64,000 bases of DNA, taken from the IMG/VR virus record IMGVR_UViG_2718218305_000006, one strand, 5' to 3'. Position numbers: made by a program. How positions within the stretch are numbered: the first letter of the stretch is position 1; every line of letters starts with the position of its first letter. This document shows positions 54,001 to 60,000 of this stretch, piece after piece. The DNA comes from a virus. Its lineage: Duplodnaviria; Heunggongvirae; Uroviricota; Caudoviricetes.

Positions 54001-57000
54001 TCAATCTCCGTCATGTCTTCGCTGTTGACGTTGGTATTGTCAGTACTGGCTGGTTTCTCCTGCACGGAGGGAGAGGGCGCGATAAATACCATTGTAATGC
54101 CATCTTCCCCGCCTTTTTCGTATCGGTTGCAGAATTCGGTATCAAACACGCCTTCAGGTGGAAGGTCATTCACAACGGGTAAATGGACGCGAACGGGTTT
54201 TTTAAAGTCGTCTTCATCATAATCGTTGTCATCCATTGCGGTAATGCAGCGGGAGATGGCAACAGATAATTTTTTTGCTGTAGTCCAGTAAAAACCACCT
54301 TTAATTCCCAGACGTTTTCTGACTTTGTCATTTTTTGCTTCGCAATATAGCGCAAATTCTTCTTTATCAGTGCTCATTGATAAACCTCATTACAGATTTA
54401 AGGGTGAACAAATCCCTGCCATTGCTGGCATTTTTAATCCGTTGGTATGGTGTTAATATGGCTGGAGGGTTATCCAGCCGGTGTTTCGTTATTCAGGTAC
54501 AGCGATACTTTTTTTTTTACCGGGAGGCATTCACCAGAAATTTTTTGCTCGTCTCTTGCCTGGAGGCAGGATTCTTTACTGGCATAAATTCCGGTAATCA
54601 CATTCTGTGATTCACCCGTTATAAGAAAAACCGTCATCATCAGTGCAAATGCTGAAGTCATTGACGTTCTCCGAAAATACCAAGTTCAAGAAGAGCAATT
54701 CGGGAAAGTATGGAATTATCATTGAGCAGATAAGGCTCATATTTCCTCATATTAATGGCATCTTCAGTAAACTCCCGGTTACTGAGCAGAACACCAATAT
54801 CAAAACAACCTTCAGACGTATTAACGTTTGGTAATAACGTTTCCATTATCGCGTCCTCAACAATGAATTTTGTGATGCGGTGCCTGGTGCCTCCAGGTGA
54901 CGTTAACCAGTTAACAATTAACGCCGGATACAGAGAATCCACCCATAACACTGTTTTTGGTTTTAACTGTTCCGCGTGCGCTTAGCCGCATTCACCGCAT
55001 CACAAAATTCACTTTAAAAAGGGCGGCAGAGCAGCCACGGAGTAAAACTGATACCGCCAAACGTCACCAGAAAATTGATAACAGAGGGCGTTGCAGCGGG
55101 GTTGTCACTTAAGCGTATGGTCAACCTGACAACCCGGTGTCCTCAAGGGGAAGGAATAACCCCGCCATACTTACCGCCGCGCCATTTCGCGGAGTGCCAC
55201 AACCGGAAGCGCACGTTCGAAGAAATCTAACGACAAGCCTTCTAAGGGAAAGAGCTTCGCCGTACGCTTTCGCGTTATGCCCTGACTTTTCAGGGAAATA
55301 TCCTTTCAGTAAACTGTCAGTACCGGATTCTTATCCGTGTCCGGCGCACGACCACACGTGACAGCGTGTTGGTCTCCATTTTTAACCCAGAACCTCAATG
55401 GAGGATAAAATGCCAAACAAAAAAAGAAATCCGCTTATTGAAAAACAGATTGAATGCCTGGTAAATCAACTCAGGCAATCAGGGTTATTAAAAACTCATT
55501 CAGAGTTGAGGCTCACAGAATCAGCATTCGACGATAAATTAAATAATGTCCTTTATAATGGCATTATTGATTTTAATCGTTCTGTTGGTCGCCGCGGCCC
55601 TGCTGGTGTTTCCTTATAATTACCAGTCAATCCAGAGTGGACCGTGTTCAGCGTAAATATAACTGTACACATCCAGATTATATTTGTGGTCTGTTAAGAA
55701 CAGGCCGCAAATACATGCCGAAGCTTCCAGTGCAGCGGCTCTGTTACTGAATAACCATGTAGCAACATTCCAGCGTTTTTCTGCATCCCAGTCTTTCTCA
55801 AGGCCTGATACCATGAAGAAACCGTTAGTGTTGCCATCAAATAATTCTGTTTCCAAATTTTTAAGCAATGCCTGATGGACTCTTGCCAGGTATTCCGCCG
55901 GAATTTCGCCACGAATTCTGATGAGATTGTCATAAACAAACATGTTCCCCGCATATGGCGATTTTTCTTTCTTGTTTTTTAAACCAGCATCATGAGCAAA
56001 CTGATCAATTTCTTCTTCCGTTGGTTTCGTATTGATGTTTTGCGCTGTCGTTTCTGCAATTTTATTTGCCACACTCTCTGAGTCGTGTTTATTTATAGAC
56101 GCACAGAAATACAATCCGGTAAACGCATCGCGCACATTACGAGCCATATTATCAGTGTCTTTTTTCGTTACCGATTCCAATTCAAGTTCGTTCAGACGAT
56201 GACGAAGTGTGTGTGCTGCAATCTCCTGGATTGAAGGAGGTAAATCTTTAAATTCCATCGTCAACCTCATCAGTCAGTGTTTCTGGCTAACCAGCGACGC
56301 GCGCCAGCTTCAGTTTTAAACGTTTTGCTTTTGGTATACGTCATCGCGGTGAACGTACCGTCCTGGTTGGGGAACACGCCACATACCAGAGATTCGTTGT
56401 TGCCAAGATTGAGCGTATCCATGTTGACCTCATTTGCCCTTAACGCCGGGGGGGCGGAACTAAGACCTGTCGCACCGTTGTGCTTTGATGGGATATATTG
56501 TTCTCTTAAGATGAACATATGTCAACATTGTGAATGCGCAAGAGGCAAAAAAAACCGCCTTCCGGCGGTATTGTTTTGTAAAATAAAGAATTATTTTTGT
56601 CGCGTTATTGGGTCAACGTATTCTGAGTAAAATTCGGTCAGTTTTTGAAGGCGCATTTGAAAAGCTGCCAGCATATTTCTACGCTCTACAGGTGGCAGGT
56701 TTCTGTAAACATCAAGCAGGGCTTTCTCATCATCATCAAGCGCCTCTCTGTTTGTATCTTCTTTTCCTGTCAGTAGCCAGGAAAGGGAAACATTTGTCGC
56801 TTCTGCAATTTTGGCTGCGGAATCTTTACTGATTGTCCCTCTTTTTTTCCAGGCGTTGACTGATGAGCGTCCTACACCAGCGATGCGCGCTAAATCTGAA
56901 CCGCTTAAATGATGCTGTTGCGAGATCGTATCTAACCTTTCTGCCAGCGGGGTGTCGTATTGCTTTTTTCTCATGTCCATTTAGCAATTATAACCGTTCA

Positions 57001-60000
57001 GTGAACACTAACAATTCCTCGTAGTGTTGACTTATGTTCTCTTTAAGTGAACAATGTTGTGGCTGATTGAATTGGAGGTTGTATGACAGCATTGGACAAG
57101 GCAATAAAGATTGCTGGTGGTATTCGTCCGCTAGGGCGTGCAATAGGGGCTTGGCCGTCTCAAATACACAAATGGGCAAATGAATACAATGGTCGAGTGC
57201 CGACAGGGGAGCGGGTTCGTCAAATTTATATTGCAACTGGGGTGACTCCTCATGAATTGCGACCAGATTTATATCCGAATCCAACCGACGGGTTGCCTGC
57301 TGGAGATAAGGCTAACACACAAAATACACCGGAGTTGATTCATGAAAATCAAGCATGAACACATCCGCATGGCGATGAATGCTTGGGCGTATCCGGACGG
57401 TGAGAAAGTACCTGCAGCTGAAATAGCTCGGGCTTATTTCGAACTGGGGATGACGTTCCCGGAACTTTACGACGACAGCCATCCGGAAGCCCTGGCCCGT
57501 AATACCCAGAAAATTTTCCGCTGGGTGGAGAAGGACACGTCTGATGCTATTGAAAAAATTCAGGCGTTGTTACCGGCGATCGAAAAGGCGATGCCGCCTT
57601 TGCTGGTGGCCCGTATGCGCAGTCACAGTTCTGAGTATTACCGGGAGATTGTCGAACGGCGAGATCGGCTGGTGAAGGATGTCGATGATTTTGTTGCGTC
57701 AGCGGTCGTTTTATATGACCAGATAAATCGCGGCGGCCCGGCAGGGAATGCTGTGGTGATGCACTAAAAGCACGGTGTTCGGGGGGGTTATGAGCAGCAA
57801 GCTTCATGGTCTTGTCTGGGAAGGGTGCGCCTTCACCGGCATGATCTTATCCAGGGTGGCAGTTATGGCCCGTCTTGCAGACTACAGCAATGACGAGGGC
57901 GTGTCATGGCCTGCTATTGAAACTATCCGGCGTCAGATCGGTGCAAGAAGTGAATCCACCGTTAAATCTGCTATTGCAGAACTGGCGAAAGAGGGCTGGC
58001 TGACGAAGGAAGAGCGTAAGGTCGGTGGGCGTAACGTAAGCAATATCTATCGGCTTAATGTGGAAAAACTTGAAGCAGCTGCAGCGGCGGCGCGTGAGGC
58101 ATATAAACCAAAAAGAAAAATTAGCCTGGCAAAAAATGACCCGTCAAATATTGACCCCTCAACGGTTGGCCCGTCAAATTTTGATGGATCAACTGTTGAT
58201 AAAAAACTGCCGATTAGGGGGGCGATGATTGACCCCGATCCGTCAGTATTAAAACCTGAACCGTCAGATAAAAGATCTTCTTGTCCGGACGTTTCACTGC
58301 CGGACGAAAAACAATCATCACCGGTTGAGCGATTTCTGGAGAAACACCCGGATGCGCATACCTGGAATGTCCCGAAGCGACAGTGGGGAACCCGGGAGGA
58401 TTTGACGTGTGCACAGTGGATCTGGGGACGGGTTGTTGCGTTGTATGAACAGGCCGCCAGTGATGATGGGGAGGTATCACGCCCCAGAGAGCCTAACTGG
58501 ACGACCTGGGCGAATGATGTGCGCATGATGCGTATGCTGGATGGACGTAGTCACCGACAGATTTGTGAAATGTTTGGGCGTGTTCAGCGGGATTCGTTCT
58601 GGGTAAAAAACATCATGAGTCCGGCAAAACTCCGGGAAAAATGGGATGAACTGGTTATTCGCCTGGGGCGTTCGCCCGCGCAGCGTTGCGTGAATCATAT
58701 TTCTGAACCGGATACCGAAATTCCGCCTGGTTTCAGGGGGTAGCGCACCATGAAAAACATTACGTCAGGTGGTGTTCTGGCAAGAGTCAGCAGATTTGTG
58801 CCGCAGGATGCAATCCCTCCGTACCGTACGGTGGCGGAGTGGCGGGAATGGCAGCTTGCTGAAGGGCGTAAGCGAAGCGAGGAGGTTAATCGTCTGAATC
58901 ATCAGACGCGGGTTGAAAAAATCATTAACCGCTCCGGTATCCAGCCGCTTCACCGGAAGTGTACGTTCGGTAACTACCGGGTGCAGAACGATGGTCAGCG
59001 CCATGCCCTGAGTCAGGCGAAATCCATTGCGGCAGAGCTGGAAGGCGGCTGTACGAATTTTGTTTTCAGTGGCAGGCCTGGCACAGGAAAAAACCACCTG
59101 GCGGCTATTGGCAACCACCTTCTGGCGAAAGGTCGCAGTGTGATTGTGATAACAGTGGCGGATGTGATGCTGGCGTTACATGGCAGCTACGACAACAAAA
59201 ACTCGGGCGAAAAATTTTTGCAGGGATTGTGTGGCGTTGACCTGCTGGTACTGGATGAAATTGGCATGCAACGGGATACGCGTAATGAGCAGGTCACGCT
59301 GAATCAGATTGTTGACCGCAGAACGGCATCGTTACTCAGTGTGGGGATGCTGACAAATCTTAACCATGCAGCGATGAATACACTTCTCGGCGAGCGGGTG
59401 ATGGACCGCATGTCCATGAACGGTGGTCGCTGGGTGACGTTTAACTGGGAGAGCTGGCGTCCGAACGTCAGCCAGCACAGGAACTGAGAAGTAATTTTTA
59501 TCCGGAGGAAGTTTTAATGGAAACCGTATTGCATGCACTGAAAGCGATGGGTAAAGCCAATTCTGTTGAACTGGCGGCGCGGCTTGATATCAGCCGTGAA
59601 GAAGTTCTCAACGAACTGTGGGAACTCAAAAAAAATGGCGTTGTTGATAAAACGGGTCACACCTGGTTTCTGGCTGTCGAAGGTGAATCCCGGGTAACCG
59701 AAGAGCGGCCAGTAAAATCTGAAACACAGGATATGCTGACCGAAGAGGTCGCTCCAAAAGTTAGCGCTAACATGATGATTGAGTTTATCGATCAGGAGGG
59801 GGCTAAAACCTGTGAAGAAATAGCGGGTAAGTTCGGTGTCAGTACTCGCAAGGTTGCTTCCACGCTGGCGGCGGTAACCGCAACGGGGCGGCTGGCACGC
59901 GTTAATCAGAACGGTAGATTTCGTTACTGCATGCCGGGCGATAATTTACCAGCAGAGCCGAAAGCCGCGCTGGTAACGGAAAGTGATGGTAAGGCCTTTC

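Follow-up and report, generated by a model that had tools for sequence, protein, structure and literature searches.

Close counterparts of the region discussed here belong to the Escherichia coli prophages CP-933P and Rac, in which the circuit logic proposed below has been shown experimentally (PMC8630535, PMC11879457). YdaS and YdaT are now taken as analogues of Cro and CII (PMC5917428, PMC8630535, PMC9986795, PMC11879457). The YdaT protein of CP-933P is a DNA-binding, POU-like tetramer that was footprinted on 5'-TTGATT-N6-AATCAA-3' at the ydaS/ydaT border, the OM site (PMC9986795), and tests of it and of the YdaS of its own prophage, which is unrelated to the YdaS described here, were negative for a toxin-antitoxin pair (PMC8630535). 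According to Wons et al., the YdaT-box activates a reverse, PRE-like promoter for racR, and the YdaT proteins of Rac and CP-933P cross-react (PMC11879457). Here, we analyse a repressor gene divergent from a ydaS-ydaT pair in a stretch of 64,000 nucleotides of viral DNA (Caudoviricetes; IMG/VR record IMGVR_UViG_2718218305_000006), the whole of which is called the window below.

We put a probability of about 85% on the reading that this region is the immunity switch, governing lysis and lysogeny, of a lambdoid prophage inserted next to ompW in E. coli O157:H7. It belongs to a well-understood kind of system, the YdaS/YdaT-type lambdoid immunity region, of which it is a heteroimmune variant. The initial annotation had described a repressor divergent from a Cro-like YdaS-family gene and a YdaT-family gene; all three open reading frames were recovered where it had placed them, and the two right-hand genes pass the curated Pfam cut-offs. 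Over 1.3 kb the region shows 100% identity with E. coli O157:H7 strain Balcarce_24.2, in whose record it sits in a lambdoid prophage adjoining ompW, with integrase, excisionase, exonuclease, dicB, a 212-amino-acid (aa) gene and a DUF1391 gene to its left, and genes for an O-like initiator and a DnaC-like loader, followed by Q, lysis and head genes, to its right. Of 5426 complete E. coli genomes, 81 have the cassette PL-repressor-OR-ydaS, each in a single copy, as expected of an immunity determinant. Across these 81 genomes the three regulators are intact, with DNA divergence of up to 11%.

The repressor and its candidate operators

Promoters and the terminator were located by consensus scan, promoter scores being out of 12 (Table 1). 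The PR-like and PL-like promoters are identical at 26 of 31 positions over 31 bp (local alignment score 42; the highest among 500 shuffles was 28), and each encloses one copy of the 19-bp inverted repeat TGTTC-N9-GAACA. Exact copies of this repeat occur only at these two places in the 64 kb, where about 0.06 would be expected (64000/4^10). At up to two mismatches the repeat is not enriched in the window (30 found, 31 expected), and we give weight to the exact copies alone. The earlier proposal had been that TGAACA/TGTTCA half-sites of the intergenic region are candidate operators. TGAACA does occur there twice (57002 and 57048); TGTTCA is absent, only GTTCA (56996) and TGTTC (57035) being present. 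GAACA/TGTTC half-sites stand, but the real unit is the TGTTC-N9-GAACA repeat, whose twin at OL/PL had been missed. Counting half-sites was dropped as proof of operators, because three GAACA/TGTTC elements in 102 bp, the window-wide maximum, are equalled by about 200 other 102-bp frames; AGTGAACA has 4 occurrences against 1.9 expected.

In four E. coli variants of 89-93% DNA identity, operator arms and promoter hexamers are invariant and changes fall in the 9-bp spacers and the flanks; the PRM-like element is unchanged, and the terminator stem is kept, the one change in the hairpin affecting a loop base. We also compared the covariation of operators with the recognition helix of the repressor across nine loci. 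In five loci with helix VGRSSVNAWKKRG, among them a Salmonella locus with 82% protein identity, 9/10 PR/PL sites have perfect TGTTC/GAACA arms around variable spacers. A Salmonella locus with helix VSRSSVNAWYKRG has TGTTA-N9-TAACA at PR, and an Enterobacter locus with helix VSRSAAHRWFSRG has CGTTG-N9-CAACA at PR and PL alike. These arm changes are symmetric, as expected for a palindrome bound by a dimer. Where the helix is SPTSVTNWFK, in Klebsiella and Cronobacter relatives, repeats of the TTAGCC/GGCTAA type take the corresponding places, and homology between PR and PL is seen in the Klebsiella phage too. The DicA operator Oc, TTGTTAG-N6-CTAACAA, has genetic support (PMC3441716); it is visible in the Qin sequence, and its outer arms TGTT..AACA are common to TGTTC-N9-GAACA.

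A third candidate operator lies over the PRM-like promoter and holds a perfect 11-bp palindrome, GTTCAgTGAAC (56996-57006), which is the sole exact GTTCANTGAAC in the window; the core TCAGTGAACAC of this site is kept in the Salmonella relative L010. A '5-1-5' model of the GTTCAgTGAAC type was also considered for the PR and PL sites and dropped, since close relatives differ in the inner, TTAAG-like half and have invariant TGTTC/GAACA arms outside it; the 11-bp palindrome was retained solely as the core of the PRM-proximal site.

The -10 element of the PRM-like promoter ends 7 nt from the repressor ATG (56980), and no Shine-Dalgarno sequence lies between them. This spacing implies a leaderless repressor mRNA, for which lambda cI and paaR2 are precedents (PMC8630535); by analogy with both, the mRNA is probably leaderless, the transcription start being a predicted one. 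The gene has two in-frame ATGs (MDMRKK..., 56974-56980, minus strand), the second of which is mostly taken by RefSeq and the first in KS-NP019. The predicted leaderless start favours the first. At the other end of the gene, the intrinsic terminator would, as read from sequence, keep transcription of the repressor gene apart from that of the PL operon; the Salmonella, Enterobacter, Cronobacter and Klebsiella relatives likewise have a GC-rich inverted repeat and then a T-run at this position.

In a Pfam scan the 129-aa repressor matched helix-turn-helix (HTH) families alone (Phage_CI_repr, 1.8e-12, and HTH_3), with no Peptidase_S24 domain, so RecA-stimulated self-cleavage is not expected. The NCBIfam DicA model (NF007257) aligns to residues 12-123 at model positions 6-127 of 135; its subfamily cut-off was missed (38.7 bits vs 101). 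By BLASTP, identity to K-12 DicA is 26% over 110 aa, with the C-terminal half included (E 5e-7). By alignment, then, the repressor is a distant full-length homologue of DicA and no DicA orthologue. The comparison with RacR, a single one, gave 12/28 identities within the HTH only (E 3e-4). Orthology with RacR was dropped because the alignment is confined to the HTH, and with it goes the RacR label of the initial annotation, DicA-type proteins being nearer. Homology with PaaR2 was dropped as well, no local alignment being found at E <= 100.

An AlphaFold2 model built from 22 homologues (predicted local distance difference test score, 83.5) has a five-helix HTH domain of the XRE/CI type (11-71), a linker and a two-helix C-terminal domain (83-121). 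The nearest structures by Foldseek are SinR, which combines an HTH with a helical multimerisation domain, and the N-domains of the 434 and P22 c2 repressors. A sequence search of the PDB returned nothing beyond weak HTH matches. More than 1000 contigs carry the exact protein. No close copy was found in the annotated phage collection, where the best hit, from Klebsiella phages, is 59% identical, which left no characterised phage as a direct reference. Salmonella, Klebsiella, Enterobacter and Cronobacter have homologues that are 53-82% identical by alignment, and in every locus fetched from these genera the repressor gene and a YdaS-YdaT pair are divergent. Phage mEp237 has a homologue of 43% identity (2501-2893) as a second gene, directly downstream of that phage's annotated repressor.

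YdaS, YdaT and the joint at the YdaT-box

The first gene of the rightward operon encodes the YdaS-like protein and is followed by ydaT, an arrangement common to the relatives. The YdaS-like protein matches PF15943 (YdaS_toxin) with 39.0 bits against a cut-off of 30, over profile positions 1-63 of 65, as well as the transcriptional repressor family phrog_35 (1.6e-25), and it has sequence similarity to the solved Cro proteins 5w8y and 3bd1. Its identity to Rac YdaS is 30%. Similarity to the YdaS of CP-933P was not detectable, and homology with that protein was dropped although the neighbouring ydaT products are 92% identical; DicC was dropped as a relative because similarity is absent.

The YdaT-like protein matches PF06254 (YdaT_toxin) with 40.4 bits against a cut-off of 21, and PHROGs family phrog_163, 'CII-like transcriptional activator' (2e-46). 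Its identity to the YdaT of CP-933P/Sp12 is 92%, with helix 51-61, including Arg60, fully identical, and it matches the solved structures 8bt1 (E 2.3e-86) and 3c4r (2.7e-79); to Rac YdaT it is 31% identical over the full length. Moreover, the presumptive binding site of this protein, which the initial annotation had missed, is in place. An exact TTGATT-N6-AATCAA occurs once in the 64-kb window, at the ydaT start, and is identical to the footprinted OM site of CP-933P (PMC9986795) and 17/18 identical to the YdaT-box of Rac (PMC11879457). With two mismatches, 3 such sites were found and about 4 expected, so that the exact copy alone is meaningful. The pattern (T/A)TGATT-N6-AATCAA over the ydaT start is kept in seven diverged loci, relatives from other genera among them; its core TGATTCATGAAAATCA is kept in Rac and in all aligned E. 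coli variants, and is slightly altered, to TGATTGATGGAAATCA, in a Klebsiella phage.

In the pairwise DNA alignment, homology to CP-933P/Sp12 starts abruptly at 57331. To the left of this mosaic joint the encoded proteins, repressor and YdaS, are unrelated to their CP-933P counterparts, and to the right YdaT is 92% identical. Because of the joint, the ydaS and ydaT reading frames overlap by 17 nt, not 4, and ydaS reads through the box in another frame. A weak candidate PRE-like promoter straddles this point as the best leftward match of a relaxed promoter scan; a strict scan found no leftward promoter within ydaS. By analogy with lambda PRE, PRE933P (PMC8630535) and PracR4 (PMC11879457), PRE may lie here.

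It is tempting to speculate, at odds that we would put clearly below even, that the YdaT-box marks a recombination joint, at which heteroimmune lambdoid prophages would swap cassettes of repressor, Cro and operators and keep a common, cross-reactive YdaT with its box. In this scenario, the YdaT of one prophage, or of an infecting phage, would switch on repressor synthesis in other, heteroimmune prophages of a poly-lysogen such as O157:H7. The cassette would in addition stand for an immunity specificity not characterised so far, that of a DicA-like repressor of SinR architecture for TGTTC-N9-GAACA.

Table 1. Positions of genes, promoters and candidate sites in the window (numbering from its first letter)
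Feature	Position	Strand	Details
PL operon cargo	54658-56422	-	
dicB cell-division inhibitor gene	54658-54846	-	Pfam DicB, 125.5 bits, full length
DicF antisense small RNA	55021-55072	-	Rfam RF00039, 75 bits vs gathering score 48
Gene for 212-216 aa protein	55620-56270	-	no known function
DUF1391 gene	56270-56422	-	Pfam DUF1391, 101.8 bits; 50 aa
PL-like promoter	56497-56525	-	TTGACA-17-AACAAT; 10/12
Candidate operator OL	56499-56517		TGTTC-N9-GAACA, between PL -35 and -10; outside the interval initially annotated
Intrinsic terminator	56544-56569	-	stem ACCGCCGGAAGGCGGT and T-run, directly after repressor gene
Repressor gene	56591-56980	-	129 aa
Repressor/ydaS intergenic region	56981-57082		102 bp
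PRM-like promoter	56987-57014	-	TTGTTA-16-TATAAT; 10/12
PRM-proximal candidate operator	56995-57013		CGTTC-N9-TAACA, two-mismatch copy of the 19-bp repeat
PR-like promoter	57027-57055	+	TTGACT-17-AACAAT, then GGAGG and ydaS ATG
Candidate operator OR	57035-57053		TGTTC-N9-GAACA, between PR -35 and -10
ydaS-family gene, Cro analogue	57083-57358	+	91 aa
Candidate weak PRE-like promoter	57321-57348	-	TTTTCA-16-TATTTT; 8/12; -35 inside YdaT-box
Mosaic joint	57331-57334		GGAG, four bases left of YdaT-box
YdaT-box/OM operator	57335-57352		TTGATTCATGAAAATCAA; ydaT ATG inside spacer
ydaT-family gene, CII analogue	57342-57767	+	141 aa
O-like initiator gene, PR operon	57775-58743	+	phrog_391, replication initiation O-like, 4e-106
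DnaC-like loader gene, PR operon	58750-59487	+	NCBIfam PRK12377, 467 bits; DnaC model

The proposed switch and other readings

In the switch that we propose, the repressor, an HTH with a helical C-terminal oligomerisation domain, would be made from the PRM-like promoter, probably from a leaderless mRNA, and would bind as a dimer or higher oligomer to TGTTC-N9-GAACA between the -35 and -10 elements of PR and PL. PR would drive ydaS, ydaT, O and the DnaC-like gene, and PL the DUF1391 gene, the gene without known function, DicF, DicB, exo, xis and int. Occupancy of OR and OL would silence both promoters and keep the prophage silent, and the third, weaker site over PRM may serve autoregulation or be the target of Cro. 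YdaS, as the Cro analogue, would bind the same region and shut off PRM. In the establishment of lysogeny, a YdaT tetramer would bind the YdaT-box and activate a leftward promoter of the PRE type, raising repressor synthesis. Gene identities, family memberships, promoter-like and terminator-like elements, the exact and covarying operator repeats, the exact YdaT-box and the mosaic joint are read from the sequence; from there we infer which protein binds which site, where transcription starts, that translation is leaderless, where PRE lies and what the phenotype would be.

The content of the PL operon, with which the RefSeq annotation of the identical record agrees, sets this switch apart from that of Rac. 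The 'Rac-like' description given initially fits the gene order and the ydaS/ydaT side; it does not fit the left half, in which the terminator, the dicBp-like PL, the DUF1391 gene, DicF and dicB are Qin-like. The region is therefore Qin-like on the left (dicA with dicBF) and Rac/CP-933P-like on the right (ydaS-ydaT-O-P). Indeed, the PL leader (56425-56461, minus strand) matches the leader that precedes ydfA in the dicB operon of K-12 Qin at 35/37 positions, and this conserved leader may be an RNA or translation element. The Salmonella, Enterobacter and Cronobacter relatives also have a leader-like sequence (GTTCCGC...GCGTTAAGGG). For the DUF1391 gene the most likely start is 56422, which gives 50 aa, as in RefSeq; an 82-aa open reading frame (56270-56518) is over-extended, because transcription from the predicted PL would begin downstream of its first ATG. 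After dicB, a DUF1482 gene occupies 54470-54661, frameshifted in the identical record according to RefSeq. DicB and DicF are established division inhibitors. For this reason they are likelier than YdaS and YdaT to cause any division block on derepression.

Several points weigh against the switch as drawn here. We infer the assignment of the repressor to TGTTC-N9-GAACA from sequence, and the right arm of the PR/PL site overlaps the -10 hexamer, so its conservation is possibly driven in part by the promoter. The PRM-proximal site loses its 19-bp frame in the Salmonella relative, so that the number and geometry of OR sites may differ from those given here. The PRE-like promoter scores only 8/12, and its -10 element lies left of the mosaic joint, so that its sequence differs from that studied in CP-933P. 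In mEp237 the homologue stands behind another repressor, and membership of this family alone is thus no proof of a CI role. Finally, with regard to induction, the repressor has no peptidase domain and no antirepressor was identified.

Other readings of the region fare less well. It could be an inert remnant, with open reading frames and sites intact through recent descent and the switch dead in a decaying prophage. E. coli O157:H7 carries many defective lambdoid prophages, and RefSeq flags the frameshifted DUF1482 gene and partial genes in this one. However, the three regulators are intact in all 81 genomes at up to 11% DNA divergence, the substitutions spare promoter hexamers and operator arms and hit spacers, and the cryptic switches of CP-933P and Rac are still functional (PMC8630535, PMC11879457). 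We consider a dead switch improbable.

A slightly less probable reading is that of a toxin-repressor module, resembling a toxin-antitoxin system, in which YdaS, YdaT or both would be growth-inhibiting toxins and the repressor, chiefly there to silence them, would be essential. The Pfam names are still YdaS_toxin and YdaT_toxin; in K-12, racR is essential and expression of ydaS/ydaT toxic (PMC5700373, PMC5700377), and the YdaT of Rac causes filamentation through rcsA (PMC11879457). The same work, however, makes this filamentation a regulatory side-effect on rcsA (PMC11879457). The 92%-identical YdaT of CP-933P showed no toxicity and is a transcription activator (PMC8630535), and the protein is a DNA-binding, POU-like tetramer (PMC9986795). 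Moreover, ydaS and ydaT occupy the positions of cro and cII, upstream of the replication genes, and Jobling's critique argues likewise against toxins (PMC5917428). The Pfam scan detected no known toxin fold or family in either protein beyond the historical names. DicB and DicF in the repressed PL operon would explain lethality on derepression without YdaS or YdaT as toxins. The 'toxic ydaS-ydaT' framing of the initial annotation is thus superseded.

Least probable, and very unlikely in our judgement, is that the 129-aa protein does no more than regulate the dicB operon in the manner of DicA, with another protein as immunity repressor: the 43% homologue of mEp237 is indeed a second gene, downstream of the annotated repressor, and the peptidase domain of classical CI repressors is lacking here, but there is no second HTH gene between int and the replication genes, the repressor gene is directly divergent from ydaS with back-to-back promoters in 102 bp, TGTTC-N9-GAACA is found in PR as well as in PL, the repressor/YdaS/YdaT trio is kept across genera, and DicA, RacR and PaaR2 are likewise short repressors.

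Taken as an immunity switch, the region allows three labels to be corrected. The 'toxin YdaT family protein' becomes a CII-like activator, the 'transcriptional regulator' a Cro analogue, and the 'helix-turn-helix protein' an immunity repressor that is DicA-like and not RacR. In addition, candidate operator coordinates become available for an immunity type that about 1.5% of complete E. coli genomes carry, Shiga-toxigenic lineages among them. The joint and the symmetric covariation of operator and helix across genera form a natural data set on the diversification of lambdoid immunity. The specificity of repressor and operators, the sharp joint at the YdaT-box and possible cross-talk through YdaT between co-resident prophages may be mildly new. 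Past annotation the importance is small, and no new kind of biology is involved.

Neighbouring genes and comparison with known systems

Of 5426 genomes, 3033 have DNA of the ydaT type, and in the O157:H7 strain there are five matches to the query, consistent with several prophage copies; both counts would favour the swapping of cassettes around a common YdaT considered above. Elsewhere in the window, a sok antisense RNA of a hok/sok-type toxin-antitoxin locus lies at 63378-63553 on the plus strand (Rfam RF01794, 117 bits), where RefSeq annotates a Hok/Gef family protein. Adjacent genes for a PP2C-family Ser/Thr phosphatase and a Ser/Thr protein kinase lie on the opposite strand (about 61643-63137, minus) in the early-right region, both labels coming only from the RefSeq annotation of the identical record.

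With lambda the region would share its logic: divergent PRM and PR, operators common to OR and OL, a repressor mRNA that is probably leaderless here, and a site for a CII-type activator that overlaps the start of the activator's own gene. However, CI has an S24 peptidase domain for RecA-stimulated cleavage, which the repressor here lacks, and CII is unrelated in sequence to YdaT, a POU-like tetramer with an inverted-repeat site. In Qin, DicA is a distant full-length homologue of the repressor, and the leader (35/37), the DUF1391 gene, DicF and DicB follow the promoter. In contrast, the rightward gene there is DicC, where YdaS and YdaT stand here, and the spacing of Oc, in a frame of 5-bp arms, is N8 in Qin against N9 here.

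The synteny with Rac comprises a ydaF-like DUF1391 gene, the repressor, ydaS, ydaT and ydaU/ydaV-like replication genes, and the YdaT-box matches at 17/18 positions with the ATG in its spacer (PMC11879457). The differences lie elsewhere: RacR is homologous only over 28 HTH residues, the intergenic repeats of Rac are of an unrelated TTAGGC type, and its left operon carries kilR/kilS and not dicF/dicB.

CP-933P/Sp12 differs in that its PaaR2 and YdaS have no detectable similarity to the repressor and YdaS described here, and in that a paaA2-parE2 toxin-antitoxin pair is found where a terminator and a dicBF-type operon follow the repressor in the present region. Its operators are repeats of the GTTTAGTAA type, against TGTTC-N9-GAACA here, and DNA homology is confined to the part from 57331 onwards. 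Nevertheless, both prophages have about 100 bp between the gene of a short repressor and a divergent ydaS-ydaT-O-P, a PL that is a near copy of PR and a repressor mRNA that is probably leaderless (PMC8630535). They also share a YdaT that is 92% identical and a YdaT-box, TTGATTCATGAAAATCAA, that is identical and lies across the ydaT start codon.

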